Below, piece by piece: positions 13,030 to 31,418 of a DNA stretch of 64,000 nt. Made by a program: the position numbers and the translations under genes. Each line of letters starts with the position of its first letter. Position 1 is the stretch's first letter. The notes beneath the pieces are model-generated. The model saw only the letters and a list, made by a program, of their open reading frames with translations, was not told the origin of the DNA and made no database searches. The stretch is from Candidatus Kapaibacterium sp. GTDB lineage: Bacteria; Bacteroidota; Ignavibacteria; Kapaibacteriales; UBA2268. The stretch spans positions 3,424,001-3,488,000 of the forward strand of contig OY761611.1 in assembly GCA_963664875.1 (NCBI GenBank), written 5' to 3'.

Positions 13030-13072
13030 GGGCTGAAAAAACAAAAAAACACAAACACAAGGATAAATAATT

Positions 13073-14404
13073 ATGCAAAAAATTCTAATACTAATATTTC
13101 TAACACTTGTATTTCCCGACAAGGAAGCATATAGCCAAACAGAAGATGTTGTGTGGCTAAAAGAAAATTTCTATTTGGAAGAGTTTAAATTCCATCCTAC
13201 TCAGGATATTTTTACTTCTTTCAATCAGTATTGGAAGGGTTTAAAAATATTTGATAAAATGACAGGTGATTCGATTGGTATGTTTCCTATGGGCGACTCG
13301 GTAAGAGGGCTGCAATATACTTTTAATACGGACGGCTCTTTGCTGGCTAGTTTCAGTTGTCCTGGTGTCATTCGTTTATGGAATTTTGAAACGAAGGAAC
13401 AAATGATTGAGTCAAGCATTGAATATTTACTTGATGCAGATTTAAAGAAGAATTTCTATGTTGGCTCTATCGATATATCTAATGATAATAAATATATTGC
13501 ACTTGGACTTTTTGGAGCTGGTTTTGTAGTATTTGATATTGAAAAAAATAAAGTTATAAAACATCAGTATTGGGAATATGATCATCCCAAATGGGGAAAA
13601 TCATTTATGGGAAGTGACTACGTAGAAATTAGTCCGGATAATAATTTAGTATTAGTTATTAGAAACCCGGCAGACAATATGCCTCAAATGATATTTTTAT
13701 ATAATATCAAAAAAAACAAAACAGAATATTTTGATATGGGATCGCATGCGATATTTTCTCCTACAGATAATGTCATGTATTATTTTAGAGATGCTTATGA
13801 TGATCAAACAGGAGAAGTGAAAAGTCTTGGTAGGTATTACGTAAATTTTGATATCAGTGATGAACCTATCAAAAGCCCTGCTAGTTTGTCAGATTGTGTT
13901 TTCTCCTTTGATGGAAAATTTATTGTTGTAAGATCAAAAATGTATTATGAAAGCATATTCTATCAACCTTACATATATAAAACTGATGATTTGTATAACT
14001 TTGCTTACAAAAGACCTTTTAATGATGTGTTCAAAATTGGAAGATGTATTTTAGATTACTCAAACAATTTTATATTGGGTGGTTCAAATCAAGGATTAGC
14101 TTTGTTAGATTTAAAAGGTGTGTTAACTTCAGCCAAAGAGGATATTAATGATAGCATAAAAATATTCCCAAATCCTGCAAATAAAACCATAACAATAAAA
14201 ACATATATAGAACATACCGGTTTACTCAAAATTGAAATTCAGAATATAGATGCTTCCATAAATCAGACTTTAAAAAAAGAAATTGTAGAAGTAGGTGAAT
14301 ATTCAGAAGAATTTGATATTAGTGCGATGCCACAAGGTACTTACTTCATTACTCTTGAGTTTTCAGGTCAAACAGAGAGTAGAAAAATTGTGGTGGTGAG
14401 GTAG
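13073..14404 (+). CDS. WD40-like beta-propeller protein with T9SS type A sorting domain (copy 1)
   Basis: Signal peptide; FHP/FNTDG/ISND/ISPD/FSP blades; C-terminal IFPNPA...GTYF...KIVVVR. Confidence 0.85.
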   Translation: MQKILILIFLTLVFPDKEAYSQTEDVVWLKENFYLEEFKFHPTQDIFTSFNQYWKGLKIFDKMTGDSIGMFPMGDSVRGLQYTFNTDGSLLASFSCPGVIRLWNFETKEQMIESSIEYLLDADLKKNFYVGSIDISNDNKYIALGLFGAGFVVFDIEKNKVIKHQYWEYDHPKWGKSFMGSDYVEISPDNNLVLVIRNPADNMPQMIFLYNIKKNKTEYFDMGSHAIFSPTDNVMYYFRDAYDDQTGEVKSLGRYYVNFDISDEPIKSPASLSDCVFSFDGKFIVVRSKMYYESIFYQPYIYKTDDLYNFAYKRPFNDVFKIGRCILDYSNNFILGGSNQGLALLDLKGVLTSAKEDINDSIKIFPNPANKTITIKTYIEHTGLLKIEIQNIDASINQTLKKEIVEVGEYSEEFDISAMPQGTYFITLEFSGQTESRKIVVVR

Positions 14405-14427: not shown

Positions 14428-14747
14428 GAGCCTGAAAGGCTCGAAGCAAATAGCAAAAGTCTTATTGCAAAGAATAAAAAAACTTCCCCTCTTGAGCGAT
14501 GTGCTGAGCGAGCATAGCGAGTCGAAGTAGGGTGGAAACAAACGAAGCACAAATTTAAACAACATAAAAAATATAAATTAAATAGATAAGTTTAGCGATA
14601 CTATTTTCTGGGGCAGTGATTTGGATAAGATATTTATCCACCTCGTCTTACCTTCGGTGAGCCATCGCTCGAGAGAGGGGAATGGGCAGACTGCATCTCG
14701 ACTCATTTTATTCGCTCGATAACCGCGAGTGTAACGAGTCGAAGTGC
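14428..14747. repeat. Palindromic repeat cluster between the duplicated genes
   Basis: 14428-14534 nearly matches 10472-10578; inverted ends at 14484 and 14682; 58-bp hairpin at 14690-14747. Confidence 0.85.
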
Positions 14748-14789
14748 GGGCTGAAAAAACAAAAAACACAAACACAAGGATAAATAATT

Positions 14790-16121
14790 ATGCAAAAAAT
14801 TCTAATACTAATATTTCTAACACTTGTATTTCCCGCCAAGGAAGCATATAGCCAAACTGAAGATGTTGTGTGGCTTAAAGAGGGAGTTAATTTGAATGAG
14901 TTTAAATTCCATCCTACTCAGGATATTTTTACTTCCTTCAATGAGTATTGGAAGGGGTTAAAAATATTTGATAAAATGACTGGGGATTCTATAGGAATGT
15001 TTCCTATGGGCGACTCGGTAAGAGGGCTGCAATATACTTTTAATACGGACGGCTCTTTGCTGGCTAGTTTCAGTTGTCCTGGTGTCATTCGTTTATGGAA
15101 TTTTGAAACGAAGGAACAAATGATTGAGTCAAGCATTGAATATTTACTTGATGCAGATTTAAAGAAGAATTTCTATGTTGGCTCTATCGATATATCTAAT
15201 GATAATAAATATATTGCACTTGGACTTTTTGGAGCTGGTTTTGTAGTATTTGATATTGAAAAAAATAAAGTTATAAAACATCAGTATTGGGAATATGATC
15301 ATCCCAAATGGGGAAAATCATTTATGGGAAGTGACTACGTAGAAATTAGTCCGGATAATAATTTAGTATTAGTTATTAGAAACCCGGCAGACAATATGCC
15401 TCAAATGATATTTTTATATAATATCAAAAAAAACAAAACAGAATATTTTGATATGGGATCGCATGCGATATTTTCTCCTACAGATAATGTCATGTATTAT
15501 TTTAGAGATGCTTATGATGATCAAACAGGAGAAGTGAAAAGTCTTGGTAGGTATTACGTAAATTTTGATATCAGTGATGAACCTATCAAAAGCCCTGCTA
15601 GTTTGTCAGATTGTGTTTTCTCCTTTGATGGAAAATTTATTGTTGTAAGATCAAAAATGTATTATGAAAACATATTCTATCGACCTTACATATACAAAAC
15701 TGATGATTTGCATCACTTTGCATACAAAAGACCTTATAATGATGTTTTTACAATCGGAAGATGTATTTTAGATTACTCAAACAATTTTATATTAGGTGGT
15801 TCAAATCAAGGATTAGCATTATTAGATTTAAAAGGTGTTTTAACTTCAGCCAAAGAAGATGCTAATGATAGCATAAAAGTATTCCCAAATCCTGCAAATA
15901 AAACCATAACAATAAAAACAGATATAGAACATACCGGTTTACTCAAAATTGAAATTCAGAATATAGATGCTTCCATAAATCAGACTTTAAAAAAAGAAAT
16001 TGTAGAAGCAGGTGAATATTCAGAAGAATTTGATATTAGTGCGCTGCCACAAGGTACTTACTTCATTACTATTGAGTTTTCAGGTCAAACAGAAAGTAGA
16101 AAAATTGTGGTGGTGAGGTAG
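14790..16121 (+). CDS. WD40-like beta-propeller T9SS protein (copy 2, tandem duplicate)
   Basis: 443 aa, same length and nearly identical to 13073-14404. Confidence 0.85.
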   Translation: MQKILILIFLTLVFPAKEAYSQTEDVVWLKEGVNLNEFKFHPTQDIFTSFNEYWKGLKIFDKMTGDSIGMFPMGDSVRGLQYTFNTDGSLLASFSCPGVIRLWNFETKEQMIESSIEYLLDADLKKNFYVGSIDISNDNKYIALGLFGAGFVVFDIEKNKVIKHQYWEYDHPKWGKSFMGSDYVEISPDNNLVLVIRNPADNMPQMIFLYNIKKNKTEYFDMGSHAIFSPTDNVMYYFRDAYDDQTGEVKSLGRYYVNFDISDEPIKSPASLSDCVFSFDGKFIVVRSKMYYENIFYRPYIYKTDDLHHFAYKRPYNDVFTIGRCILDYSNNFILGGSNQGLALLDLKGVLTSAKEDANDSIKVFPNPANKTITIKTDIEHTGLLKIEIQNIDASINQTLKKEIVEAGEYSEEFDISALPQGTYFITIEFSGQTESRKIVVVR

Positions 16122-16144: not shown

Positions 16145-16291
16145 GAGACTGAAAGGCTCGAAGCTATTAGCCCTAGGCAGCAAAGGTGACTGCATCTCGA
16201 CTCATTTTATTCGCTCGATAACCGCGAGTGTAACGAGTCGAAGTGCAGGAGAAAGGCACCCCCACACCACCGTTTTTTGAAAACCGAGCTC
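16145..16291. repeat. Palindromic repeat cluster with the third 58-bp hairpin (16189-16246)
   Basis: GAGACTGAAAGGCTC, TTAGCCCTAGG, the 58-bp hairpin, and a CCACACC..CGTTTT..ACCGAGCT motif also seen at about 10831-10857. Confidence 0.8.
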
Positions 16292-18045: not shown

Positions 18046-18119
18046 TACGCCAGAAAGGATTCGAACCTTTGGCCTACAGCTTAGAAGGCTGTTGCTCTAT
18101 CCAGCTGAGCTACTGGCGC
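18046..18119 (-). tRNA. tRNA-Arg(TCT)
   Basis: Reverse complement GCGCCAGTAGCTCAGCTGGATAGAGCAACAGCCTTCTAAGCTGTAGGCCAAAGGTTCGAATCCTTTCTGGCGTA; anticodon loop CTTCTAA; CCA not encoded. Confidence 0.96.
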
Positions 18120-18232: not shown

Positions 18233-18247
18233 TATCATAAATTTTTG

Positions 18248-18340
18248 GTCAAGCCCTTTGTGGTTAAGTCAAACCCAATCCCGCCAGGTCCGGAAGGAAG
18301 CAACGGTAAGTTTCGTCTTAAGGCACAAAGTAAGCTTGGC
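18248..18340 (+). ncRNA. ffs: Signal recognition particle RNA (4.5S)
   Basis: Domain IV motif CAGGTCCGGAAGGAAGCAAC; closing stem GTCAAGC/GCTTGGC followed by a T-tract. Confidence 0.92.
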
Positions 18341-18517
18341 TTTTTTTTTATATTTACAAACCTAACAAATAAATCCCCAATTTAATAAAGTAAATCCCCA
18401 ACTTTATCAAGCAAATTCCTCAAAATATCATCGGCAATAATAGCACAGATAAAAAATTTGCTATATTGCAAACAAATCTCAACTTGAAAGATTATTTGGA
18501 AAAGATAAGAAAATCAG

Positions 18518-18722
18518 TCGGCAAGGAACTCGATCGAGAAAGCGAACTGGGCGACCACGGCGTACGTAAAGTAGATTACGGGCTGGGCAGGTTTACTACT
18601 ATAGATCTAAGGTCACTGAGCGAGCGCAGCGAGTCGAAGTGTGGGAGAAATACTACGCATGGTCTCCGTACCAGTATAGTATGAATAATCCGGTGAGTTT
18701 GGCGGATTGGAATGGGAAGGAT
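18518..18722 (+). repeat. Rhs core remnant 1 (frameshifted by a palindromic insert at 18607-18641)
   Basis: Translates GKELDRESELGDHGVRKVDYGLGRFTTID / WEKYYAWSPYQYSMNNPVSLADWNG, the conserved end of an Rhs core. Confidence 0.9.
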
Positions 18723-19304
18723 TTTAAATTGCTTCCTAACTCTACTACCAATATGCTACTTGCACAAAACAATAATACCACTATTGCAACTTTTACGCAT
18801 TTTAATGGGATTCAACAAACTAATTGGAATACAATTATGAATAACCAAATTACTAAATGGCAAAGTTACGCTCCAAAAGTTGCAAAATTTGCTACTGAAA
18901 ATGATATTAGTGTGATGTCAGCTGCTAGTTTTAAAAAAGAATATTCCAATCAAGTTGCTGCTCTAAATCCAAATACTGGAATGCTGGAAGTTAAGTTTCC
19001 TGAAGAAAATGAAGACAATACATTGGAGCAAGATTTACTCCATGAAACTGTTCATGTTATGGGGTATAGTGAATATGCTGCATGGTCAGTTGATTTAGCT
19101 TTGGGGAATGTAGACAAAGATACTTTTCTATATAATTTGAAAAAGAATGAAAGTTTTAGGAATGATTATATTTTTGGAAATCATGAAGCATACAAAGATA
19201 ATAGTATAGTTACCTCACAAAGAAATAATCTAAAAAATGGTAAAATAACTTATGAACAGCTTGTTCAACAAATGGTTGAATATGGGAACAGTATAATAAA
19301 ATGA
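18639..19304 (+). CDS. Orphan Rhs C-terminal toxin, HEXXH metallopeptidase-like
   Basis: Follows the Rhs core end; LLHETVHVMG..EY.AW. Confidence 0.72.
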   Translation: MWEKYYAWSPYQYSMNNPVSLADWNGKDFKLLPNSTTNMLLAQNNNTTIATFTHFNGIQQTNWNTIMNNQITKWQSYAPKVAKFATENDISVMSAASFKKEYSNQVAALNPNTGMLEVKFPEENEDNTLEQDLLHETVHVMGYSEYAAWSVDLALGNVDKDTFLYNLKKNESFRNDYIFGNHEAYKDNSIVTSQRNNLKNGKITYEQLVQQMVEYGNSIIK

Positions 19305-19981
19305 GAAAGTTAATCATTATATTATGTAGTGTAATCATTTTTGTTGCATGTACTTATGAGCAGCATGTATTACAATTACCTGCATATAGATCTTCTGTTA
19401 CTATAGAAAGATATGTAGCTAAGATGAGAGGGTATAAACCTTTTAATACATTGAATGATTCTGTAGGTATGAAAATGGTGTTTGAAAATGTAGGAGCTTC
19501 GAACAAAGCCTACTTTGGAATAACCCTAGAACCAAATGAATTTAAAGTAAAGTCTTCAGATTTAGAAATCAGACTAACTCGATATGTCAGTTTACAAACA
19601 GATAAACCAAATCTTGGACCCCAAAATATTTTTATAAGCCTTAAACAGACAGATACATTATTCAATGCTTTTTTTATTATTTGGGAGCCTGAGCTGGATA
19701 CTGCTTCACCTTACTTTATAGATAATCCTGAATGGCTCAATAGAAAATCACAAAATATTATTACAAATCTAACCAAAGAAGAATTGTTAAAGATAATTCC
19801 TGACATAACAATAGAGAATGTCAAAATGGTATCTTCCAATATCTTTATCAATGACAATATTTCCAGATTAAGGTTGGATTTCTATGAAAATATTCGATTT
19901 GATAATCTTGAACTTGGAATGACTTATGAGTATTGGAATCAGTATAAACGAAATGAAGATATCGGTATAAAATACAGATAG
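19301..19981 (+). CDS. Putative immunity lipoprotein
   Basis: Start overlaps the toxin stop; lipobox FVAC. Confidence 0.65.
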   Translation: MRKLIIILCSVIIFVACTYEQHVLQLPAYRSSVTIERYVAKMRGYKPFNTLNDSVGMKMVFENVGASNKAYFGITLEPNEFKVKSSDLEIRLTRYVSLQTDKPNLGPQNIFISLKQTDTLFNAFFIIWEPELDTASPYFIDNPEWLNRKSQNIITNLTKEELLKIIPDITIENVKMVSSNIFINDNISRLRLDFYENIRFDNLELGMTYEYWNQYKRNEDIGIKYR

Positions 19982-19983
19982 CC

Positions 19984-20424
19984 ACGACCAATGCACCGCC
20001 TACATCGGCAAGGAACTGGACAGAGAAAGCGAACTTGGTGACCACGGAGTGCGTAAAGTAGATTACGGGCTGGGCAGGTTTACTACTATAGATCTAAGGT
20101 CACTGAGCGAGCGCAGCGAGTCGAAGTGTGGGAAAAATACTACGCATGGTCACCGTACCAGTATAGTATGAATAATCCGGTGAGTTTGGTTGATTATTAC
20201 TCAATTTTTCCTTGTTATCAACTATTGCCCTCCTGCATTTGAAGTCAAGGTTAAGAAGGATTAGTCAGCAAATGGTGTGACATTTTCGGTGAAAATTGAG
20301 AATCAGGTATCTCCTAAGTCTGGGAACAAATCCAAATTAGCAAAAAAACAAGAAGAATTAACTAGTAAAGTACAACAAGCTGCAAGTGAGATGACAGAGC
20401 ATGGAAAAGCATTTATTAGCCAAT
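19984..20424 (+). pseudogene. Rhs core remnant 2 plus decayed toxin fragment
   Basis: Core at 19984-20196 with insert 20094-20128; short remnant PPAFEVKVKKD*SANGVTF...EMTEHGKAFISQ*. Confidence 0.7.
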
Positions 20425-21222
20425 AAGAATTCTGTTTGGTTGTGTATATTTTTAATTTGGATAACTATTGTAAATAGTTGCTCTAATATAGATAAACCTG
20501 ACAAAAAAAAGTTTGAAATACCTCTAACCGAGTATAAGATTCCTGTTGTTGATAGCCTTAAGCTGTCTGGATATAATATAAGAGGAACAAATTTTGAAGC
20601 AAATTATCGTCACTGGCAAGTATTAACAATTGATTCATATTTAAAAATTAGGCACTATTTTTCCGCCGACAGCATTGCATTTACAAATTGTGACCAAGTC
20701 ATATGCTATCCTACAATTTCTTATTTAATGCAAGAACATCATAATATAAACGAGAAATTAGAAAGTCTTTTGGAATTTAAAGTTCAAAACTTAATTGCTA
20801 TAAAAGAAGAAGACAGTGCTTCATTCAACAAAGCATTTTATATATCATGGCTTAATGAACCACAATTGATTCCTTCGGGCAAGCAAGGTCACCACAGTTG
20901 GTTTACAACCATTTATAGCGATGAAATAGATTCAACAACTTTTGCAGTATTTACAACTTTAGATTCCTTGATATTGAGAAGGATTTATCCCAAATATAAA
21001 GGTCTTATTACTCAAATACATATCGATACTATATTTTTGCCTTTTGTTCAAAGAAATTCTATTGATTACTATCCTGAGATAAAAATTGATTCGTTTTACT
21101 ACAGCAATTGTGTATTACCGCACGAATACTCGAGCAAGTTAAATTGGTTTTCAAAAGAGGCAAGAGATTCACTCAAACTAGAATTAGATTCCATGATGAA
21201 AATAAAATCTATTCATTTTTAG
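20401..21222 (+). CDS. Putative immunity lipoprotein (its toxin is lost)
   Basis: Overlaps the end of the toxin remnant; hydrophobic N-terminus ending VNSC. Confidence 0.6.
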   Translation: MEKHLLANKNSVWLCIFLIWITIVNSCSNIDKPDKKKFEIPLTEYKIPVVDSLKLSGYNIRGTNFEANYRHWQVLTIDSYLKIRHYFSADSIAFTNCDQVICYPTISYLMQEHHNINEKLESLLEFKVQNLIAIKEEDSASFNKAFYISWLNEPQLIPSGKQGHHSWFTTIYSDEIDSTTFAVFTTLDSLILRRIYPKYKGLITQIHIDTIFLPFVQRNSIDYYPEIKIDSFYYSNCVLPHEYSSKLNWFSKEARDSLKLELDSMMKIKSIHF

Positions 21223-21286
21223 GAATATGAGATGTATTGTTTGTCTCTATGCTGAATCAAACCCCAAAAAGCTTGAGTCAATATAT

Positions 21287-21506
21287 AAAAATTTGATTAT
21301 CTTCCATTTGGGAAGCTTGCTCCTGCCATTGGTGGAGACCACGGCGTACGTAAAGTAGATTACGGGCTGGGCAGGTTTACTACGTGTGATCTAAGGTCAC
21401 TGAGCGAGCGCAGCGAGTCGAAGTGTGGGGAAAATACTACGCTTGGTCTCCGTACCAGTATAGTCTGAATAATCCGGTGAGTTTTTTGGATGAGAATGGG
21501 AAGGAT
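21287..21506 (+). repeat. Rhs core remnant 3 (internal deletion plus insert 21391-21425)
   Basis: FDYLPFGKLAPAIG-GDHGVRKVDYGLGRFTTCD / WGKYYAWSPYQYSLNNP. Confidence 0.9.
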
Positions 21507-22088
21507 TTTGGTTTTGTAGTTAAGCCAACTGAAGGAGCAAATTTTGGACATACGTATTTATATTTTCAAGACAAACAGGGACAATGGTATAGATATGATC
21601 AGGGCAATTATGAAAACAGAGCTCCGTCAGGTGGTCGGGCAACTGTTACAGGCAAGGACTATGATGCAACTGTAAAAATTGATCCTGTAGATGGAGTGCC
21701 TGATGATGCAATATTATTTAAGACAACTGAAAATCAAGATAAGGCAATTAGTGAAAGTGCGTTTATGTCTCAATATTTGCACAATAATGATTACTTACCT
21801 TATAATCTGTATCACAATAATTGCACAGATGCAGCCGTAGATGTTATATTGGATGCTATATACAACGGTACTAGTGTCAATATTTTTAATCCTTGGGATA
21901 TGCCTGCTCCTAATACATGGTTCAAATATTTGAAAGAAGAAATCAAAAAAGGAACTCAAAAGACAGATTTTAGGGATTTGGATAAAACAGTAGATTCTCT
22001 TGAAGAAATGGAAGAGCAGTTACCACAACAAAAGAGCGTTGCCCCTCAAGACAATACAGCAGTAAAAAAGCAGGAGATTAAACAATGA
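21423..22088 (+). CDS. Orphan Rhs C-terminal toxin, permuted papain-like (His...Asn-Cys)
   Basis: FGHTY ... YNLYHNNCTD. Confidence 0.7.
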   Translation: MWGKYYAWSPYQYSLNNPVSFLDENGKDFGFVVKPTEGANFGHTYLYFQDKQGQWYRYDQGNYENRAPSGGRATVTGKDYDATVKIDPVDGVPDDAILFKTTENQDKAISESAFMSQYLHNNDYLPYNLYHNNCTDAAVDVILDAIYNGTSVNIFNPWDMPAPNTWFKYLKEEIKKGTQKTDFRDLDKTVDSLEEMEEQLPQQKSVAPQDNTAVKKQEIKQ

Positions 22089-22579
22089 TTAGTTATACTA
22101 AAATAGTATTTTGTTTTGGCATTATTGTTTTTCTCTTATCAACGTCTTGCCAATCAGACAGACAAAAAGCTGATATTAATATAGATACTATTTTTGATTA
22201 TAGTAATTACTTGATTCAATATAGTTTAGAAGCTAATGAAATAGAACAACTGAAAGATAAATTTTATAATGATTTAGGTTATAAATCAAGAATAAGAGGT
22301 AAATTAAAGTTGTTATTGTTGAATGATTCACTTGTTACAATAGATAAAAATGATATCGTAATAAAACTCGATAGTCATAGATTTTCTATAAATACTGACT
22401 ATGCAGATATATTTAAAGGACCTGGAAGCATAGATTTAAAGAAAGATATCAATTATTCTATAGAATGTTTCTGGTATTTCGATGATACATTATTATTGAA
22501 TGATATTAAAAAGATTAGACTCGGAGATGTAAAATATGGAGAGTCACATATTAGAATTAAAGAGAAACTAACAAAATAA
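22085..22579 (+). CDS. Putative immunity lipoprotein
   Basis: ATGA overlap with the toxin stop; lipobox-like STSC. Confidence 0.65.
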   Translation: MISYTKIVFCFGIIVFLLSTSCQSDRQKADINIDTIFDYSNYLIQYSLEANEIEQLKDKFYNDLGYKSRIRGKLKLLLLNDSLVTIDKNDIVIKLDSHRFSINTDYADIFKGPGSIDLKKDINYSIECFWYFDDTLLLNDIKKIRLGDVKYGESHIRIKEKLTK

Positions 22580-22650
22580 TCTATCAGTAAGATTATGGAT
22601 GATTATTATAATCAAACCCCAAAAAGCTTGAGTCTTACTATTAGAAAATC

Positions 22651-22842
22651 GAAAAATTTGATTATCTTCCATTTGGAAAGCTTGCTCCTGCCATTGGTGG
22701 CGACCACGGCGTCCGTAAAGTAGATTACGGGCTGGGCAGGTTTACTACTATAGATCCACTGTGGGAGAAATATTATGCGTGGTCACCGTACCAGTATAGT
22801 ATGAATAATCCGGTGAGTTTGGCGGATAGGAATGGGAAGGAT
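22651..22842 (+). repeat. Rhs core remnant 4 (no insert; in frame with its toxin)
   Basis: KFDYLPFGKLAPAIGGDHGVRKVDYGLGRFTTIDPLWEKYYAWSPYQYSMNNP is open in one frame, preceded by TAG at 22642. Confidence 0.9.
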
Positions 22843-23442
22843 ATTTATTTAGTAATGTGGAAGACAGATTCAGATAACTGGGGACATGCGGGACTAGCGT
22901 ATGATATCAAAGATGCGAATGGAAATCCAACGGGGACATATGCATACATGGATCTTTGGCCAACGGAAAGTATAGGTATGTTCAATTACGATGAAGACGT
23001 TACTCCATATTACCAAGGCGTAGGACTGAATGACTTGACAAAAATAGATAAAAATGATTTTGATAATTCTAGTAATGATGATATTCAAGAGCACAAGCCA
23101 TCTTATCCTGATGGAATTATAAAAATTCCTACAAATACAGAAGATGAAAAGAAAATTTTGCAAAAAGCTGCTTCTTTTCAAAACGACAACAAGTCTTACA
23201 ATAGTGAAAGTTGGAATTGCAGTTCTTTTGTGTCAACTTTAATTCAGCAAGCTTATCCAAATTTTTTAGCAATAGAGTACATTAAGTGGTCGAAAATGTT
23301 TGTATCTACCCCTCATAAATTATTTCAGAGTGCAAAAAAAATTGAAGGGGCTGAGGTCATTAAAGATCCTTGTGAAGATGTGCAAGAAGGATTTGAAAAT
23401 GCTACGTCAGCAAAATCAAAAAAATCGAAAAAGAAAGAATAG
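22801..23442 (+). CDS. Orphan Rhs C-terminal toxin, permuted papain-like (His...Asn-Cys)
   Basis: WGHAG ... YNSESWNCSSFV ... STPHKL. Confidence 0.7.
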   Translation: MNNPVSLADRNGKDIYLVMWKTDSDNWGHAGLAYDIKDANGNPTGTYAYMDLWPTESIGMFNYDEDVTPYYQGVGLNDLTKIDKNDFDNSSNDDIQEHKPSYPDGIIKIPTNTEDEKKILQKAASFQNDNKSYNSESWNCSSFVSTLIQQAYPNFLAIEYIKWSKMFVSTPHKLFQSAKKIEGAEVIKDPCEDVQEGFENATSAKSKKSKKKE

Positions 23443-23468
23443 CATACTTAAAATAATTAGGATAAAAT

Positions 23469-23927
23469 ATGAAAATAGTAGCAATAGTTATAACATTAAT
23501 AGCTTTAATTATTTTGTGTTTGTTATGTTACAAATCAAGGTATTCTAATATTTTTGATATAATACCTTTGAAAAGAAATGAGATTGTAAAAATTGAAATT
23601 AAATACATTATACGTCAGAAAATTGATAGTATGATGTATAAAAGTCAATACCAATTTTATGAAAAAAAGAAGTTTAGTTTAGTTGTATATGAGCAAAGTT
23701 TGCAGGATAGTATATATTACAATGCCAATATCAAACAAGATATAAAGAGATCTATGTTTAATATACGTTCTATAATTGTAATTAATGATAGTATTTCTAT
23801 AAATCTAGCTCCACAAGGCTGGAGTTTATGCAGAATAAATGGTAATCAATATAAAATAGATAATAATATTTACAATGTATTGCAAAAAATAGTTACATCA
23901 AATACTGAACACATTCCTTTCTTTTAG
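23469..23927 (+). CDS. Putative immunity protein (N-terminal membrane anchor)
   Basis: Directly follows the toxin; very AT-rich; hydrophobic N-terminus. Confidence 0.6.
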   Translation: MKIVAIVITLIALIILCLLCYKSRYSNIFDIIPLKRNEIVKIEIKYIIRQKIDSMMYKSQYQFYEKKKFSLVVYEQSLQDSIYYNANIKQDIKRSMFNIRSIIVINDSISINLAPQGWSLCRINGNQYKIDNNIYNVLQKIVTSNTEHIPFF

Positions 23928-24135
23928 GGACTAAAAAAATAGTAGATCATGTTAATCTTAGTTAGATTTAAAAGGTCGAATATAATAAATATCATAACAA
24001 GACTCATGCTATAACCCAGCTTGAGTTTTTTTAGTAGGTAGCAAACCGAAAAATTTGATTATCTTCCATTCACCTAAAAAAATATCACAAAACTTCGGAG
24101 CTCACCTCTCAGATAACTCAAATACGACTTAAGAT

Positions 24136-25353
24136 TTAAAAGAGTCTGATGCCTAATGCCATGCCAAACCAGTCTCTGGTCCAATGATGATCGTTCCTGT
24201 AAACGGGGTTGCCTTTGTCGGTAAAGTTCGAACCGTCGTTGATGATTGAATAGTAAAAATTGAAGGTTGGGCCGGCAAAAACTTTTATACCGTTTGTCAG
24301 CTTGAAACCTGCCACTACGTGAGTTCGGGTGATAAAGTGCAGTTCATTTGTCCAAAAGCCTTTGTCCGGTTCGTTGATGTGCTCGGCACTCTGCCCGGCT
24401 TCTATATAAAACCTGTCGCTCAGCTCAGCGTTTACTGCCCAAGTAAAACCAAGCAGCCATCTGTCTTTATCTTCCTGATCTATACCAAAATAAGCTATAT
24501 TTACAAATTTGTCGTTACCGGAAACGATGCCGACTCGTGCTATTTTATTCTCATCTGTCCAAATTGACAAATCAACTCCGGTTTCGCCGACAAAAGAGAA
24601 AATTCCAAGCGAAGCACCATCGTTTGAAGCGGCTATGTTGATAGGAGCTACCTGCACTCCCGACATATCTTCTGCTACATTGACAATACCGGAAATCTGC
24701 ATACCTGTAAAGTCAGCAGCAGAGCTTGCTATACCGGAAATCTGCATACCTATGCCGTCGGATGCGGAGCTGTTAATTCCCGATATTTGAATTCCGTTCA
24801 TTCCGTCCGCCACAGTGTTGCTTATGCCTGCCACCTGTATCCCGTTCAAATTTGATTCTATATTATTTGCAACAGATGCAATCTGCACTCCTTGGGTAAA
24901 GCCGGTACTCAAATTGAAAATACCTGCCACCTGAATACCGAGCATTTCCGCATGATTAACATTAGTAATGCCTGCTATCTGAATGCCGTTGAGCCCAAGG
25001 TGGCTGATGTTTACTATGCTGGCATTCTGGATGCCACGCACAAATCCCTCAGCTCTATTGCCTATTCCCGAGATCTGAATACCTGTAACATCTTCGCGAT
25101 AGTGATTCCAGATGAGACCATACTCTATGCCTTCCAGCTTGTAAGCCGAACCTACGATATTCAGCGATATATGATTGACTATTCTGCCGTATGGGTAAAC
25201 GATTTCGCCCACGGAAAGGCCGGGCATGATAGAAAAATTGACAGGCATATATTTGTATCTTGCAGGCGTGGCAGTGTTGAGCTTTATTTCATGATCCTGA
25301 GCCTGCGAGGCGATGCCTATCATTACTAAAAATATGAGAATGTATTTTACCAT
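24136..25353 (-). CDS. Surface protein with GxQ repeats (LA_2272-like) and a C-terminal beta-barrel-like region
   Basis: Signal peptide; about ten G(I/V/M)Q(I/V)(S/A)G..N repeats; ends GIRLF. Confidence 0.78.
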   Translation of the reverse strand: MVKYILIFLVMIGIASQAQDHEIKLNTATPARYKYMPVNFSIMPGLSVGEIVYPYGRIVNHISLNIVGSAYKLEGIEYGLIWNHYREDVTGIQISGIGNRAEGFVRGIQNASIVNISHLGLNGIQIAGITNVNHAEMLGIQVAGIFNLSTGFTQGVQIASVANNIESNLNGIQVAGISNTVADGMNGIQISGINSSASDGIGMQISGIASSAADFTGMQISGIVNVAEDMSGVQVAPINIAASNDGASLGIFSFVGETGVDLSIWTDENKIARVGIVSGNDKFVNIAYFGIDQEDKDRWLLGFTWAVNAELSDRFYIEAGQSAEHINEPDKGFWTNELHFITRTHVVAGFKLTNGIKVFAGPTFNFYYSIINDGSNFTDKGNPVYRNDHHWTRDWFGMALGIRLF

Positions 25354-25556
25354 TTGGTCTTAGAGCATTTCCGTATAAAAAAATTGAAAAAATAGAAAAA
25401 ACCGAGCCAATTTTCAAATAGATTTGGTTTTTAATTCCATTTCAAGTAATTTTTGATTTCTTGGGTTTAATATGGTCAAAACGGTTTTTCAAATTCCGTT
25501 CAATCTGCACCATAAGGGAAATATTTTTTGTTAAATAAATAGAAAGACAAATACTA

Positions 25557-27566
25557 ATGGAATTTGGTATTAGAAACGTTATTTTTATCGTTTTGTTTCT
25601 TGCTGCTATGGGTTTTCTCGGAGAAAATATCCATAGACTAATCTCATATCTCAAAACAGCCAAGCAGGAAAACAAAACTGACAGAATTTTAGACAGAATC
25701 AAAAAGACATTGAACGTAGCACTTTTTCAGTCTAAAATCATGCGCGACCCCGTAGCCGGGCCTATTCACGCCGGCATATTTTGGGGTTTCCTTGTGCTGA
25801 TGTTTTCTGCGGCAAGCTCCATCATGGAAGGCTTCGGCGTCAGACATTTCTTTGATTTTATGGGACCGGTCTGGACTCTGATTACTCTATCTACCGATAT
25901 TTTTATCCCTGTGGTCATTGTGGCAGTAATTTGGGCTGCCCAGAGAAGATTTATTCTTAAAGAAAAGAGATTGCAGGTAGAAGGAGAAGCAGGCGAGGCA
26001 GCTCTAATATTGGCTATGATTTTTACTATCGTTACTTCTCTGATGCTCGAAAATGCTGCTAACATCAAAATGGGCATAGACGCTCAGCATGCCTTGAGAC
26101 CTTTTGCGGGCATTATCGCAGGATTCCTTTCTGCTGATATAGCTCCCTATATTCATGAAGTTGGTTTCTGGCTGCATATCGGTGTGATTATGGCATTTAT
26201 GAACTTTTTGCCTTACTCAAAACACCTTCACGTTTATACCTCAATTCCGAATGTATTTATATCGTCTATAGAGTACCCTAATAAACTCGAAAAGATGAAT
26301 TTCGAAGATGAAAATCTAACTAAATATGGTATAGTTGATATCGACGATTTGAATTGGAAATCGATGATGGACGGCTATTCATGTACCCACTGCGGTAGAT
26401 GTACCAGCGTTTGCCCGGCTAATCTTACAGGTAAGCAGCTCGATCCGAGAGAAATAATTGTTCAGGTTAGGGAGCGTACTTTCGACATTGGTGACATACT
26501 TGTCAAAAAACAAAAATTCGGCGAAGATGTTGAGCTTTCTGATATAGAGCAGCAAAAACTTGCTAAAACATTTGTAGGCGAATATCAAAATATCGACGCC
26601 ATTTGGCAATGCACTACTTGTGGTGCTTGTATGCAGGAATGTCCGGTTTCTATCGAGCATGTACCTGTTATAGTTGGTATGCGAAGAAATCTTGCAATGA
26701 TGGAAGCGAATTTTTCGCCTGAGCTTCAAACCACTTTTGGCAATTTGGAAACAAATTCTACTCCTTGGGCTTTTTCCTCAGCCGAACGTGCTGACTGGGC
26801 TGAAGGCTTGGAAATACCGACAGCAGCAGACACTCCTGATTTCGATATACTCTTTTGGGTAGGCTGTGCTGGTAGCTATGACGACAGAGCAAAAAAAATC
26901 TCTGTTGCCTTTTCTAAACTGATGCAAAAAGCAGGAGTCAACTTTGCTATATTAGGCACAGAAGAAGCCTGCAACGGCGATGTCGCACGCAGAGCCGGCA
27001 ATGAGTACCTTGCTAATATGCTGATAACAATGAACATGGAAACTCTCACACGCTACAATGTCAAAAAAATAGTAACTATATGCCCTCACTGCTTCAATAC
27101 ATTCAGAAATGAATATAAGGACTTTGGTGGCGAGTTCGAGGTAGTGCATCATACAGAATTTTTGAATCAGCTGATAAAAGACGGTAAACTCACAATCAAA
27201 GCCGGTAGCAAAATGGAAATAGCATACCATGACTCTTGCTATCTCGGCAGATATAATGACGTTTACGAAGCACCTCGCAACGTAATCGAAAGCGTGCCCG
27301 GGCTAAACATACTCGAAGCCGACAGACACCACGACAGAGGTCTTTGCTGCGGTGCCGGTGGTGGCCAGATGTTTATGGAAGAAACAGAAGGCAAGCGTGT
27401 AAATATTGAAAGAACCGAAGAACTTTTAGCTACCGGAGCAACTACAATAGCTGCTAACTGCCCATTCTGCATGACAATGATCAGCGATGGTGTAAAATCG
27501 AAAGACAAAGATGAAGAAGTAAAAGTTTTGGATATCGCAGAAATACTATTAGAACAAGTAGAGTAG
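25557..27566 (+). CDS. Membrane Fe-S oxidoreductase (HdrD/FadF-like, CCG domains)
   Basis: N-terminal TM region; CTHCGRCTSVCP; CTTCGACMQECP; YHDSCYLGR; CCGAGGG; CPFC. Confidence 0.9.
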   Translation: MEFGIRNVIFIVLFLAAMGFLGENIHRLISYLKTAKQENKTDRILDRIKKTLNVALFQSKIMRDPVAGPIHAGIFWGFLVLMFSAASSIMEGFGVRHFFDFMGPVWTLITLSTDIFIPVVIVAVIWAAQRRFILKEKRLQVEGEAGEAALILAMIFTIVTSLMLENAANIKMGIDAQHALRPFAGIIAGFLSADIAPYIHEVGFWLHIGVIMAFMNFLPYSKHLHVYTSIPNVFISSIEYPNKLEKMNFEDENLTKYGIVDIDDLNWKSMMDGYSCTHCGRCTSVCPANLTGKQLDPREIIVQVRERTFDIGDILVKKQKFGEDVELSDIEQQKLAKTFVGEYQNIDAIWQCTTCGACMQECPVSIEHVPVIVGMRRNLAMMEANFSPELQTTFGNLETNSTPWAFSSAERADWAEGLEIPTAADTPDFDILFWVGCAGSYDDRAKKISVAFSKLMQKAGVNFAILGTEEACNGDVARRAGNEYLANMLITMNMETLTRYNVKKIVTICPHCFNTFRNEYKDFGGEFEVVHHTEFLNQLIKDGKLTIKAGSKMEIAYHDSCYLGRYNDVYEAPRNVIESVPGLNILEADRHHDRGLCCGAGGGQMFMEETEGKRVNIERTEELLATGATTIAANCPFCMTMISDGVKSKDKDEEVKVLDIAEILLEQVE

Positions 27567-27682
27567 AAATAGTATTTCACTTACATAATCCGGTACTTAT
27601 GTTTATAGCATAATATCTTCTGATAAAGAAGTAAACACCGTCAAATATATTATTGCAAAATAGCAAAAATATGTTTATTTTT

Positions 27683-27718
27683 TAAGCACTGAGTAGTTAA
27701 TTCTACTCAGTGCTTTTT
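27683..27718 (+). terminator. Intrinsic terminator
   Basis: AAGCACTGAGTAG-TTAATT-CTACTCAGTGCTTTTT. Confidence 0.8.
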
Positions 27719-27738
27719 ATAATTTGGAGAACCAACCA

Positions 27739-29006
27739 ATGCGAAATATTTTTCAATTTAACTATTTATCTACACTGCTACTTAAAAGGAATTTATAATT
27801 TTATAAAAATATATAGTTTGACGAATTGACAAAAAAGAGAGGCTGAAAGCCTCAAAATAGATTAGCCCATGGCAACGCCATGGGTATAAGGCATCAAAAA
27901 AATTAGAGCCCTGAAAGGGCGGGAAGAAATGGCATGGCACACTCTTTAGGGTGTCCCGGGGCGATGCCCCTAGCTAATATCTTTCAGCCTTACAGACTGT
28001 ATGCAGAGTCCTTTTCAATTTGACAATTTATCCGCTCTGCTACTTAAATTGAATTTATAATTTTATAAAAAAATATATAGTTTGACGAATTGACAAAAAA
28101 GAGAGGCTGAAAGCCTCAAAAGAGATTAGCCCATGGCAACGCCATGGGTATAAGGCATCAAAAAAAATTAGAGCCCTGAAAGGGCGGGAAGAAATGGCAT
28201 GGCACACTCTTTAGGGTGTCCCGGGGCGATGCCCCTAGCTAATATCTTTCAGCCTTTCAGGCTGTATGCACAGTCCTTTTCAATTTGACAATTTATCCGC
28301 TCTGCTACTTAAATTGAATTTATAATTTTATAAAAAAATATATAGTTTGACGAATTGACAAAAAAGAGAGGCTGAAAGCCTCAAAAGAGATTAGCCCATG
28401 GCAACGCCATGGGTATAAGGCATCAAAAAAATTAGAGCCCTGAAAGGGCGGGAAGAAATGGCATGTCACACTCTTTAGGTGTCCCGGGGCGATGCCCCTA
28501 GCTAATATCTTTCAGCCTTTCAGGCTGTATGCAGAGTCCTTTTCAATTTAACTATTTATCTGCTCTGCTAGTAAAAGGAATTTATAATTTTATAAAAAAA
28601 TATATAGTTTGACGAATTGACAAAAAAGAGAGGCTGAAAGCCTCAAAAGAGATTAGCCCATGGCAACGCCATGGGTATAAGGCATTAAAATAAATTAGAG
28701 TCCTGAAAGGGCGGGAAGAAATGGCATGGCACACTCTTTAGGGTGTCCCGGGGCGATACCCCTAGCTAATATCTTTCAGCCTTTCAGGCTGTATGCAGAG
28801 TCCTTTTCAATTTAACTATTTATCTGCTCTGCTATTTAAAAGGAATTTATAATTTTATAAAAAAATATATAGTTTGACGAATTGACAAAAAAGAGAGGCT
28901 GAAAGCCTCAAAAGAGATTAGCCCATGGCAACGCCATGGGTATAAGGCATCAAAAAAAATTAGAGCCCTGAAAGGGCGGGAAGAAATGGCATGGCACACT
29001 CTTTAG
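27739..29006 (+). repeat. Tandem array of ~264-bp units (starts 27739, 28001, 28266, 28529, 28793); the fifth unit runs into tnpA
   Basis: Each unit has an AT-rich linker, AGGCTGAAAGCCT, CCCATGGCAACGCCATGGG, GCCCTGAAAGGGC and the first codons of tnpA (ATGGCACACTCTTTAG). In units 1-4 this is followed by the element's right end. Confidence 0.95.
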
Positions 29007-29534
29007 CCGAAGTATATATTCACATTGTTTTCAGTACAAAAGACAGAGCACAAATAATAAAAAATGATTTAAGTGCCAGATTGCATTCCTACCTGGGAGG
29101 AATTTGCAATGGATTAAATTGTACCCCTCTCTCAATTGGAGGTTATGAGGATCATATTCATATACTTTGTGTTTTATCAAAAAAGACTAGCATTGTTGAA
29201 CTTGTTGAAAATCTCAAAAAACAATCTTCACGATGGATAAAAGAGCAGGACGCAAAATATTCATCTTTTTATTGGCAGGCCGGATATGGAGTATTCTCAG
29301 TAAATAAATCTCAAATATCTGATATTCGAAACTATATCGAAAATCAAGTCGAACATCACAAACGTGTAGATTTCAAACAGGAATACAAAGCCATCTTAGA
29401 CAAATTAGGAGTAAAATATGATGAAAGATATTTGTGGATATGACCATCTTGCCGCCCTTTCAGGGCTCTGGTAGTTTGGTTTGGGGTGTCCCGGGGCGAT
29501 GCCCCGGGCTAAGATCTCTCAGCCTTTCAGGCTG
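28895..29534 (+). mobile_element. tnpA element bounded by inverted palindrome clusters
   Basis: Left AGGCTGAAAGCCT...TTAGCCCATGG...AGAGCCCTGAAAGGGCGG; right CCGCCCTTTCAGGGCTCT...CCCGGGGCGATGCCCCGGGCTAA...AGCCTTTCAGGCT. Confidence 0.8.
28991..29443 (+). CDS. tnpA: IS200/IS605-family Y1 (HUH) transposase, REP-flanked
   Basis: HIVFSTKDR, GGYEDHIHIL (HUH), LK..SS.W, FYWQAGYGVFSV, YIENQ.EHH (catalytic Tyr). Confidence 0.93.
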   Translation: MAHSLAEVYIHIVFSTKDRAQIIKNDLSARLHSYLGGICNGLNCTPLSIGGYEDHIHILCVLSKKTSIVELVENLKKQSSRWIKEQDAKYSSFYWQAGYGVFSVNKSQISDIRNYIENQVEHHKRVDFKQEYKAILDKLGVKYDERYLWI

Positions 29535-29567
29535 TATATTTAATTGAAATTTTGGACTTTACAGTCC

Positions 29568-29742
29568 CTCAGTGACCTTAGATCACACGTAGTAAACCTG
29601 CCCAGCCCGTAATCTACTTTGCGCACGCCGTGGTCGCCCAGTTCGCTTTCTCTGTCAAGTTCCTTGCCGAGGTAGGCTGTGCGCTGGTCGTCGTTACCAC
29701 TTATGGCAGGAGCAAGCTTTCCAAATGGAAGATAATCAAAAA
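29568..29742 (-). repeat. Rhs core remnant 6 (longest upstream part; truncated inside the insert; no toxin)
   Basis: Reverse complement translates FDYLPFGKLAPAISGNDDQRTAYLGKELDRESELGDHGVRKVDYGLGRFTTCD, followed by CTAAGGTCACTGAG. Confidence 0.9.
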
Positions 29743-29816
29743 TTATTTTTTAAGAAAGACTCAAGCCTGAAAAAGTGTAAGTCTTTCTATGAGTTATACT
29801 AGTACAGGGAATATTA

Positions 29817-30233
29817 TTAATTTCCTAGGCTTAAAATATAATTTCTTTGCTTTTTAGGCAAAAAATTAGCGATAAACATTAATAATATGTTTTGATTTTT
29901 AACTACTCTGTAATTACCACATTGAATTTCACCATTCTCAAACACTTTCACAGTTGCAAAGCTACTATCAATATCATCCAGATCGTCATATAGTAATATA
30001 GTTAAAAGAATTTTACTGTGAATTGTTCCAGCATAAAGTTCATAGTTTGTAGAATCTTTAAGATAAATATTCAAACCATTAATAGATGCACTTGATCGAT
30101 CATAGATGCTATCTAGTGCTAAATCCATATTTACTTTTATACCTACAAAACTTATATTCTCAATATTCTGAGATTTTGCCAAATAGATAGATACCGACGA
30201 TAGTAAACAAAAATATACAAATATATATTTCAT
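29817..30233 (-). CDS. Putative secreted immunity-type protein
   Basis: Signal peptide; abuts the upstream toxin-immunity ORF; AT-rich. Confidence 0.55.
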   Translation of the reverse strand: MKYIFVYFCLLSSVSIYLAKSQNIENISFVGIKVNMDLALDSIYDRSSASINGLNIYLKDSTNYELYAGTIHSKILLTILLYDDLDDIDSSFATVKVFENGEIQCGNYRVVKNQNILLMFIANFLPKKQRNYILSLGN

Positions 30234-31418
30234 TTATTTCATCTCCTCTAATAGATATGCATCTATCATGAAATAGTAGCAAGGAAGCATGTCAAATAAT
30301 GTGTTTTTTGAATCTTTTGGAATCGAGTAATATTTAGATCTGTATAAACAATAATCTAAAGTCACATTAAAACCAAATGTATCTCTTTGATGTTCAAATT
30401 CTTTAATAAAAACATGTTGGATAGTATAAAGCGGAGGCATTTGTTTAACTATATTTTTTTCAACAATAATAGAGTCTGTAATTTGAGTGAAACAAGAATA
30501 TATATCAATTCCTTTATACAATAGATAATTATCATAATGCAATTGACATATCTCTTCATTACTATGAATATACAAGCCCACTCCACTGTCAAAAGTATAA
30601 ATATGTATTTTATATCTATCACAATTAGCATGTCCAACTAATACTGAAAGAATAGCAAAAAGTAATAATGTTGATATTTTCTTATCCATTCGTTTTTTCC
30701 TTTTTTTTTTGGGTACTTCTGTTGGAGAAGAAACATTTTTAGGTTTACCTTTGTGATCTTCTCTGCTTGATTCATCTGGGATAGCATCGCATGCTCTTTT
30801 CTCAGGTCCAGCAATAACTCTTTCTTCTTCATCATTGTCGTACTGTGGATTATAAGTTTTTATGGTTTTGATATATTCAAGTATAATATCATTGACAGAT
30901 TGTTTGAATTCCTTACTTGGAGGGAATCCATTGTTCTGCCAAAACTCCATATCGGATATATTTAATTGTTCAAAAGCATCGAAAATTGGAACAGCATGCA
31001 TTATTTCATGATATAAATTCATAGCAGGAGATTGCCCACTACCGTTTTCAAAAATAAGTCCTAATAAAGGAGACCACTCAACACGAAAAGCATTATTGCC
31101 AGTTCTAAATCTTTGTATATGAGAAGAATGTATGTCAATATCAAGTCTAACATGTGAATTATACATATCAATTAACTTAATTGCATCATCTTCTGGTAGA
31201 TTATCAATGAGATAATCTAAAGCCTAATTGAAATACATTTTATCCTGTTCAGTAGCATTAACTAATCTAAACTCTTTCCCATCATAATCAGCCAAACTCA
31301 CCGGATTGTTCATACTATACTGGTACGGAGACCATGCATAATATTTTTCCCACAGAGGGTCACACGTAGTAAACCTGCCTAGCTCGTAGTCCACTTTGCG
31401 GACGCCGTGGTCTCCCAT
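30234..31418 (-). pseudogene. Rhs core remnant 7 plus HEXXH toxin (single in-frame TAG at 31224-31226), fused in frame to a signal-peptide immunity protein starting at 30689
   Basis: ORF 31224-31418 reads on past TAG (ALDYLIDNLPEDDAIKLID) into ORF 30234-31166; LYHEIMHA, EEERVI.GPE; second half starts MDKKISTLLLFAILSVLVGHANC. Confidence 0.75.

Follow-up and report, generated by a model that had tools for sequence, protein, structure and literature searches.

We analysed a stretch of 64,000 nucleotides (nt) of Candidatus Kapaibacterium sp. (assembly GCA_963664875.1, contig OY761611.1, positions 3,424,001 to 3,488,000 of the forward strand; hereafter the window), which is part of a complete genome of 3.83 Mb. 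To the right of a tRNA gene it contains an array of orphan Rhs cassettes, i.e. 3' Rhs cores without the long N-terminal body (partial TIGR03696 matches), which lead into toxin ends (Table 1). The toxin-end open reading frames (ORFs) of the window encode 213-310 amino acids (aa), are mutually unrelated and are each followed by an ORF of 138-226 aa; Pfam gave no family for these toxin and immunity ORFs apart from one weak M91 match, and their roles are assigned from position. Three of the cores are broken by an identical 35-nt insert, and this insert is a copy of a small, fold-constrained hairpin repeat that is found throughout the genome and the genus and is not specific to Rhs genes.

The insert in the Rhs cores of the window

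The 35-mer CTAAGGTCACTGAGCGAGCGCAGCGAGTCGAAGTG is present in three exact copies in the window (shuffled sequences gave none), each of which sits within the 3' part of an Rhs-associated core, between …GKELDRESELGDHGVRKVDYGLGRFTT[I/C]D and WEKYYAWSPYQYSMNNPVSL…. In cores 1-3 the insert stands in place of CCACTG, giving a net gain of 29 nt. The site is empty in core 4 (GAT-CCACTG-TGGG) and, on the minus strand, in core 7 (GAC-CCTCTG-TGGG); core 6, also on the minus strand, keeps the first 14 nt of the insert (CTAAGGTCACTGAG), beyond which lie other hairpin repeats and a Y1 transposase gene. Direct reading therefore bore out the filled, partial and empty states, and their positions, that an earlier note on this DNA had assigned to these cores. 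The core alignment likewise agreed with that note in finding all four combinations of the ID/CD variant with the filled or empty state, and an upstream deletion common to cores 3 and 4, which is also present in the genome copies g169 and g1068.

As the three copies are identical and lie inside a repeated region, they could in principle be an assembly or consensus artefact, with one sequence copied into several cores. However, the independent assemblies of three sister species have inserts at the same 3' junction with sequence variants of their own, truncated and nested forms of the insert occur at three other loci of this genome, and the unique parts of cassettes 1-4 and 7 were without a single difference in Logan contigs from three to four sequencing runs of two studies. 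An artefact as the source of the insert is therefore excluded for practical purposes.

The insert is a dispersed, folded repeat

We searched the whole genome for the element on both strands. There were 19 copies at up to 3 mismatches (a reversed-pattern control gave 0), 33 at up to 6 substitutions and about 40 in all; nhmmer returned 58 hits at E ≤10, weak and partial ones counted. Intergenic DNA, other repeat modules (as nested copies), a tandem array at genome 2362975-2364531 and Rhs cores all contain copies, about two thirds of which are outside Rhs cassettes. The 35-mer of the cores recurs letter for letter at genome 2597769 and 2663421, within another hairpin repeat of which empty copies exist, and in two further contexts the tip of an existing hairpin has lost 4 or 7 nt in exchange for 34 or 36 nt. 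At up to 3 mismatches the element was found in all five genomes of the genus, including this one, and in none of the 36 other genomes of the family and order. In Rfam no family matched the element, either in the window or in the array.

The element is ~29-35 nt long and reads AAGG-TCACT-GA-GC-GA-GC-(GNA-like triloop)-GC-GA-G-(bulged T)-C-GA-AGTG, which corresponds to a hairpin of two storeys. The outer stem (CACT/AGTG) is followed by a first tandem G.A/A.G, then by a G-C pair, the bulged T and a C-G pair, and after these by a second tandem G.A/A.G, two Watson-Crick pairs and the three-base loop. Mini-hairpins with GNA loops and sheared G.A pairs have great stability, and a bulged T is also a feature of the ends of IS608.

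We assessed the fold by covariation among 81 distinct copies from the five genomes, which were chosen by their outer parts so that the 7 central bases were free to vary. At the eight Watson-Crick pairs, 95.5% of the cells held standard pairs compared with 88.3% after shuffling (none of 500 shuffles reached the observed value), and sliding the partners by 1-3 columns reduced the figure to 14-39%. The covariation score was 0.259 against 0.123 in the control (again 0/500). Pairs 16-22 (AU 36, GC 32, CG 2) and 17-21 (CG 51, UA 22) covary, and the G.A columns are invariant or nearly so (at least 90%). Kinship among the copies inflates these figures, but the compensatory changes are plain all the same, including one in Rhs-lodged copies, where CACT/AGTG has become TGCT/AGTA in the sister genomes G002 and G003. 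The earlier note had called the insert a palindrome. As a Watson-Crick palindrome it does not hold up, since nearest-neighbour folding of the insert was no better than that of shuffles (z +0.7 to +1.4); as a hairpin with G.A pairs it does, on the covariation. The element is like the repetitive extragenic palindromes known as REPs, and its exact form is restricted to the genus.

Single matches to a hairpin pattern of 24 specified bases were found far outside the phylum, one in a contig of Microbacterium sp. and one in an Eremiobacterota metagenome-assembled genome; a chance match is unlikely.

Distribution among Rhs cores of this genome

The genome holds 16 cores of the family to which those of the window belong (family A). 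Six are empty, among them the core that ends a 2851-aa Rhs ORF 31 kb to the right of the window; three carry the 35-nt form (cores 1-3), and one a long form with an inverted second hairpin nested inside it. Homology stops inside the element in two more (core 6 and g1068), two stop at exactly the same GAT with unrelated, terminator-like sequence and no element behind it, and the remaining two are cut earlier. Every filled family-A copy has 27-64 open codons upstream compared with 2640 in the full-length gene, which is empty, so that the element is seen only in orphan cassettes. The suggestion of the earlier note that the insert-bearing core acts as a junction rather than as coding DNA is therefore upheld: these cores are non-coding orphan junctions. 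A role as a programmed frameshift or translational bypass element was rejected, as the only full-length Rhs gene of this core family has an empty site.

In a second core family of 16 members (family B, …YYQDGSTxARFGFNGMERDDE…) the element lies at a different codon. Here six cores are empty (ARFGFNGME), three have the 35-nt form, two have a 26-nt form without the upper storey, one is truncated within the element, and in the remaining four a different hairpin type cuts the core earlier, directly after YYQDGS. The core loses 6 nt and gains 35 at the site of either family (net +29 nt), and no shared target sequence was seen between the family-A site (GATC-CACTGT-GGGAG) and the family-B site (CTTC-GGATTC-AATGG). 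Homology ends at four of the 12 Rhs-embedded copies of the element. With 6 nt replaced by 35, taking the element out in full would leave the reading frame intact; excision or splicing was considered on this ground and set aside because another context swaps 4 nt for 34.

Distribution in sister species

When four genus-mates were queried with core 1, many of the matches started exactly at the insert. Among 23 distinct core contexts from three sister species 14 were filled and 9 empty, and the 3' junction was identical in all 14 filled ones (…GTCGAAG(T/A)(G/A) joined to TGGGA…). Because this junction is common to the sister species, the element appears to have been lodged at this point of the core before the species split. 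The 5' junction takes several forms: GATC with a short hairpin of 24 nt behind it (2 contexts), ACTA or ACTACA with CCTTAG…AAAGG behind it (2 contexts) and, in G002 and G003, GGGCGA followed by the 14-nt linker ACTTCAGCACGCTC, which replaces ~58 nt of core (11 contexts, one of which is truncated and lies outside the 23). Nested and tandem forms of the element also occur in sister cores. In the loci fetched from G002 and G003, the 20 cores that have the upstream anchor are all orphans, whether filled or empty, and have 4-56 codons open ahead of them; in G004 the three core copies stop within 9 nt of the site. The insert region of the core is also a recurrent end of homology.

The linker of G002 and G003, ACTTCAGCAC(A/G)CTC, reads as a decayed inverted copy of the hairpin, in which case these inserts would be doublets like the REPINs (REP doublets forming hairpins). 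A connection of ACTTCAGCACGCTC with the family-B flank was dropped, a 7-mer being the sole match.

Recombination among the cores and variation between samples

We applied the four-gamete test to the nine cores of this genome with both flanks, which gave 14 informative sites; the insert was entered as one site, and two of the 14 are alignment by-products of the insert ends. Fifty of the 91 site pairs were incompatible, and the minimum number of recombination events (Rm) was at least 6. The cores therefore do recombine, which was one of the two possibilities that the earlier note had proposed. The insert site conflicts with six sites, and most of the other sites conflict with one another likewise; because of this the mosaic is a property of the whole core family and not a mark of the insert. 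It is as expected of tandem paralogues that convert each other. The right-flank haplotype TACTAC is found in all three full inserts and in two of the six empty cores, which points to a single origin of the inserts.

Logan contigs were also used to look for variation between samples; they break at the repeated cores, so that cassette order and filled/empty polymorphism are outside their reach. One contig from run X15 joins 24070 to 29723 on opposite strands, with both sides unique in the genome. This joint is an inversion of a 5.65-kb block between the inverted core fragments 24018-24070 and 29689-29745, and it demonstrates that rearrangement through core homology does occur between samples, although the hairpin was not used there. 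The cassette circles joined at the palindrome that the earlier note envisaged were not encountered, in that no circle or cassette joint at the element was found in the Logan contigs, which break at repeats. Two joints were attributed to paralogues elsewhere in the genome: a circle or tandem joint from 29558 to 27706, which goes back 1853 nt and is present in all four runs, to a paralogous transposase locus (genome 3603536-3603587), and a joint at 18348 to genome 97277. A joint from 21517 to 24012 (X10-X12) is ambiguous, with intervening letters unread and a left side that also fits the full-length gene with 4 mismatches; a joint that goes back 36 nt, from 21426 to 21391 (X10-X12), may stem from tandem copies of the element elsewhere in the genome.

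A GIY-YIG nuclease gene in the arrays

The tandem array of the element, which is 1.06 Mb from the window, encloses the only small GIY-YIG gene of the genome (2363811-2364113). In the array, forward copies of the element alternate with inverted copies of a sister type at a spacing of ~110 nt. The protein has 100 aa and consists of the catalytic domain alone (Pfam PF01541, 1.7e-16); its closest solved relatives are the UPF0213 proteins 1zg2 (1.7e-13) and 1ywl (1.7e-11), which are of unknown function. An orthologue lies inside an array of the element in each of the four sister genomes, i.e. in five of five genomes of the genus. Short palindromes (TTGTTCCACATGGAACAA) also recur in the array, next to fragments that resemble gene starts.

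Homologues were found in 48 of 121 sampled genomes of the class and in 95 of 301 of the phylum. In other genera, hairpins that follow the scheme xyz-C(T/C)GAGC-loop-GTCGA(A/G)G-z'y'x', in which xyz covaries, lie within a few hundred bases of the homologue gene. They flank it at 14 of 19 loci with a loose pattern, counting three with single weak matches, and a strict pattern places them at 10 of 26. Of the five loci missed by the loose pattern, four were inspected for repeats, and in each of these other repeats stand beside the gene. The hairpins within 1 kb of the gene number 8 of 32 in G137, 6 of 113 in G124 and 3 of 13 in G062, which is high relative to the genome background, and no such hairpin was found at three loci of long UvrC-like GIY-YIG genes. 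In the class sample the homologue was present in 19 of the 28 genomes with at least ten hairpin copies compared with 29 of the 92 with fewer (odds ratio 4.6; Fisher p ~0.0009, with 120 of the 121 rows entered and kinship uncorrected).

These results provide a lead, still a tentative one, that the UPF0213 nuclease may act on the hairpin. Several observations weigh against such a link. Nine of the 28 class genomes with at least ten hairpin copies are without a close homologue, and in four such genomes distant small GIY-YIG genes had hairpins at none of nine loci. G149 has 249 hairpin copies and no close homologue, and the 100 copies listed are scattered, with none on the contigs that carry its small GIY-YIG genes; in G056, which has 27 copies, no small GIY-YIG gene was found. 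Because the distant small GIY-YIG loci are without hairpins, the association belongs to one nuclease subfamily, and the hairpins can persist in its absence, as REPs do in that of REP-associated tyrosine transposases (RAYTs).

A more far-reaching proposal, which we consider speculative and put forward with reserve, is that UPF0213-type GIY-YIG genes, a widespread family, make up a second system of the REP/RAYT kind across the phylum, jointly with the G.A-hairpins (CTGAGC...GTCGAAG) on either side of them. The hairpin-nuclease-hairpin unit would be autonomous and the solitary hairpins its non-autonomous offspring, and in this genus fixed-point breaks made by the nuclease at the Rhs-lodged hairpins would drive the turnover of toxin cassettes. 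In the full texts searched, which took in few subscription journals, nothing connected dispersed hairpin repeats with GIY-YIG or UPF0213 genes, and GIY-YIG combined with REP terms and motif strings gave no full-text hits.

Small GIY-YIG genes of a distant subfamily were also seen in tandem, with five copies at G065:C19:516155-517895 (spacing 382 nt) and three at G115:C1:3709346-3710400 (427 nt), in both cases with no CTGAGC...GTCGAAG hairpin nearby.

Origin and consequences of the insert

The insert is probably best explained as a selfish, REP-like hairpin that is tolerated in untranslated orphan cassettes, spreads through their duplication and gene conversion and is fragile enough to act as a breakpoint. 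One copy would have entered an orphan Rhs cassette within its 3' core, at the codons for D-P-L-W, ahead of the split between the sister species. As the orphan cores are not translated from a start of their own, the frameshift of +29 would cost nothing. Cassette duplication and rampant gene conversion among the core repeats of ~200 nt would have dispersed the filled and empty states and the ID/CD variant, and selection would keep the full-length Rhs gene clean of the element. The element itself evolves under a constraint on its fold and enters the tips of other hairpins, replacing a few bases. A hairpin prone to breakage or template switching would often become the border of a core fragment, and could in this way remodel the cassette arrays with no dedicated recombination site.

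Some of the observations fit this explanation less well. The copies do not share one 5' junction (it is GATC in this genome, ACTA in G001 and GGGCGA with the linker in G002 and G003), and the two cores that stop at the same GAT without the element would also fit a breakage hot spot or repeated insertion. In addition, the inserts are identical over 35 nt and their flanks differ by ~7% and 10%, for which recent spread or recurrent insertion is the better fit. Such observations could be accommodated by targeted, homing-like insertion, in which a nuclease makes its cut at one fixed position of the Rhs core, directly 5' of TGGGAG, and repair copies the hairpin in with a variable loss of target on the 5' side; the filled copies would then result from several events and could convert empty paralogues. 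This mechanism would explain a 3' junction that is fixed in all 14 filled sister contexts and in all copies here alongside at least three different 5' junctions, the unrelated DNA behind the shared GAT, and the identity of the inserts with each other and with two non-Rhs copies despite flank divergence of 7-10%; insertions elsewhere, at hairpin tips, likewise take the place of few bases of the target (4 and 7 nt), and a nuclease gene is at hand within the arrays. However, the family-A and family-B sites have no visible target in common, the TACTAC flank is distributed among filled and empty cores as one origin predicts, and small UPF0213 proteins have no evident DNA-binding domain for the recognition of a long site. 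We regard targeted insertion, the main rival explanation, as rather unlikely.

The earlier note had suggested that there may be a repeat-marked system for shuffling toxin cassettes, which in an integron-like form would use the repeat as a cassette boundary and a local enzyme that cuts the hairpin to excise and re-insert cassettes. It is in keeping with this that the elements of cassettes 1-3 are in direct orientation, 1487 and 1297 nt apart, and bracket toxin-immunity pairs, that many cassettes of G002 and G003 start with ~25 nt of core and the element, that four of the 12 Rhs-embedded copies are end-points of homology, and that the hairpin has a bulged base like attC sites. Nevertheless, a dedicated system of this kind is improbable: the repeat is a genome-wide hairpin family with about two thirds of its copies in other repeats and intergenic DNA, outside Rhs cassettes, empty orphan cores are equally common (cassettes 4 and 7 have no element), the Logan contigs contained no locus-unique joint at the element, and the inversion seen in X15 uses core fragments. 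The local TnpA, which the note had named as a candidate, was also rejected as the partner, as this Y1 transposase is flanked by hairpins of its own, different type and it is the GIY-YIG gene that the arrays of the element hold. Still less probable is an expression signal, whereby the insert would supply a start codon (its terminal GTG is in frame with WEKYY...), a promoter or an RNA structure that allows orphan toxins to be made alone. The ORF finder does start two toxin-end ORFs (18639-19304 and 21423-22088) at the GTG of the insert, and the toxin ORFs behind filled cores are intact, but the triplet at that position is GTA, which is no start codon, in 7 of the 14 filled sister contexts, most copies of the repeat do not lie ahead of ORFs, and none of the runs that contain the stretch is an RNA run.

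A selfish hairpin in silent, recombining toxin cassettes is ordinary in kind, and this simpler explanation mostly replaces the meaning that had been attached to the insert. The element has hit two different codons in two Rhs core families and coincides with many ends of core homology; for these reasons, and because it leaves ~75 nt for a productive swap, it is a concrete factor in the pace at which the toxin repertoire changes. The array-enclosed UPF0213 GIY-YIG gene, which is present in every genome of the genus and whose homologues are flanked by related hairpins in many other genera, offers a testable function for a large family of unknown role. If true, the partnership with the nuclease would add a partner other than a transposase to the REP/RAYT paradigm.

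Other features of the window

The features of the cassette array are listed in Table 1. In cassette 7 an in-frame TAG (31224-31226, minus strand) splits the toxin end from the core, 17 codons past the core tail. The toxin end of cassette 3 (DENGKDFGFVVKPTEGANFGHTYLYFQ...) resembles, by alignment only, that of the full-length Rhs gene, from genome 3519298 onward (DWNGKDFGFVVHPDQAAGMGHTTLYYQ...). Between 27800 and 29443 there are five tandem units of ~240 nt, each of which repeats approximately the first 20 bases of the IS200-like transposase ORF downstream, and a near-identical paralogous locus lies at genome 3603536-3604343. Outside the cassettes, a sister hairpin type (CCCCTC..TGAGCGATGTGCTGAGCGAGC...GTCGAAGTAGGGTGG), the one that cuts the four family-B cores, occurs together with nested forms at 7144-7178, 10542-10576 and 14498-14532 and also at 13007-13030, 14725-14748 and 16224-16247, behind genes for beta-propeller proteins sorted by the type IX secretion system (T9SS). 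At 13073-14404 and 14790-16121 there is a tandem pair of 443-aa paralogues with a WD40-like propeller and a Por_Secre_tail domain, each followed by the nested hairpin form.

Table 1. Features in and around the orphan Rhs cassette array (window coordinates).
Feature	Position	Strand	Evidence and remarks
tRNA gene, left edge of cassette array	18046..18119	-	Rfam RF00005, 73.6 bits
Signal recognition particle (SRP) RNA gene, directly ahead of cassette 1	18247..18344	+	Rfam RF00169, 62.4 bits
Orphan Rhs core fragment 1 (GKELDRESELGDHGVRKVDYGLGRFTTID / insert / WEKYYAWSPYQYSMNNPVSLADWNGKD)	18520..18722	+	TIGR03696 partial matches; 64 open codons upstream
Hairpin repeat copy 1	18607..18641	+	Exact 35-mer; CCACTG replaced, net +29
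Toxin-end ORF 1, 221 aa	18639..19304	+	No Pfam family; in frame with core tail; listed start is GTG at 3' end of insert
Putative immunity ORF 1, 226 aa	19301..19981	+	No Pfam family; role inferred from position
Orphan Rhs core fragment 2	19982..20194	+	Downstream part paralogous to g169 (g169 site empty)
Hairpin repeat copy 2	20094..20128	+	Exact 35-mer
Orphan Rhs core fragment 3, CD variant, upstream deletion	21287..21506	+	Core alignment
Hairpin repeat copy 3	21391..21425	+	Exact 35-mer
Toxin-end ORF 3, 221 aa	21423..22088	+	No Pfam family
Putative immunity ORF 3, 164 aa	22085..22579	+	Role inferred from position
Orphan Rhs core fragment 4, empty site CCACTG at 22756-22761	22652..22840	+	Core alignment
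Short 5' core fragment, arm of the run X15 inversion joint	24018..24070	+	Contig joint
Tandem array, ~240-nt units of other hairpin modules	27800..28990	.	Each unit repeats first bases of transposase ORF
IS200-like Y1 transposase (RAYT-like)	28991..29443	+	Pfam Y1_Tnp 1.3e-28; NCBIfam IS200 7e-22; REP_Tyr_transpos below cut-off
Orphan Rhs core fragment 6, CD variant, full upstream part	29568..29745	-	Homology stops inside insert
Truncated hairpin repeat, first 14 nt, different hairpin module next	29568..29581	-	Core alignment
Toxin-end ORF 7, 310 aa	30234..31166	-	Weak Peptidase_M91 match, below cut-off
Orphan Rhs core fragment 7, CD variant, empty site at 31353-31358	31280..31416	-	Core alignment

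Comparison with known systems

The element resembles REPs and REPINs in that it is a short, imperfect, fold-constrained hairpin with tens of copies, which occur as singles, inverted doublets and arrays, cluster round a single-copy gene of nuclease type and include nested and intragenic copies. Passages of PMC3733652 document intragenic REPs, including cases in which related species have them at a single site of a given gene. Unlike REP/REPIN-RAYT systems, the gene inside the arrays of the element encodes a 100-aa GIY-YIG protein of the UPF0213 type and not a Y1 transposase, and among the nhmmer hits none of the four Y1_Tnp genes of the genome has a full copy of the element within 1 kb. The Y1 transposase of the window is flanked by inverted AGAGCCCTGAAAGGGCGG hairpins, and the truncated core-6 copy is the only one nearby, 125 nt away. 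The stem also differs, having two tandem G.A motifs and a bulged T where REPs have a G+C-rich Watson-Crick stem. By eye, the AAGGTCACTG...GAAGTGT type has no GTAG or CGTC head; a sister hairpin type ends in ...GAAGTAGGGTGG.

Orphan Rhs cassettes that exchange through the core are well known (PMC3150448, PMC3967940, PMC7043789). The window matches orphan Rhs and CdiA arrays in its combination of core fragment, variable toxin end and small downstream ORF, with a full-length paralogue elsewhere. It differs in that a mobile hairpin breaks the shared core in half of the window orphans, leaving ~75 nt of in-frame homology.

Integron attC sites, which lie at cassette borders, are single strands folded into hairpins that contain unpaired bases and vary at their centre. 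Unlike them, the element has no R and L boxes and is dispersed genome-wide, which argues against its membership of integron cassettes; no integrase was seen by the arrays, although no search aimed at integrases was made. As a small palindromic repeat that enters coding DNA, the element is also comparable to the Rickettsia palindromic elements and to intragenic MITEs (miniature transposable elements with inverted repeats). The Rickettsia palindromic elements are kept in frame inside working proteins, whereas the present element causes a frameshift, and untranslated orphans are the only cores in which it is seen. Their presence inside proteins is mentioned in a passage of PMC3733652.

With respect to GIY-YIG homing endonucleases such as I-TevI and the Seg proteins, the UPF0213-like protein is without a DNA-binding extension and there is no intron or intein; the catalytic fold is the same, however, and a break of the homing type would agree with a junction that is fixed and a loss of target confined to one side. 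Interest attaches to the hairpin as a new kind, to its recurrent lodging in Rhs cores and its breakage there, and most of all to the fact that a nuclease gene whose function is unknown is embedded in its arrays throughout the genus.

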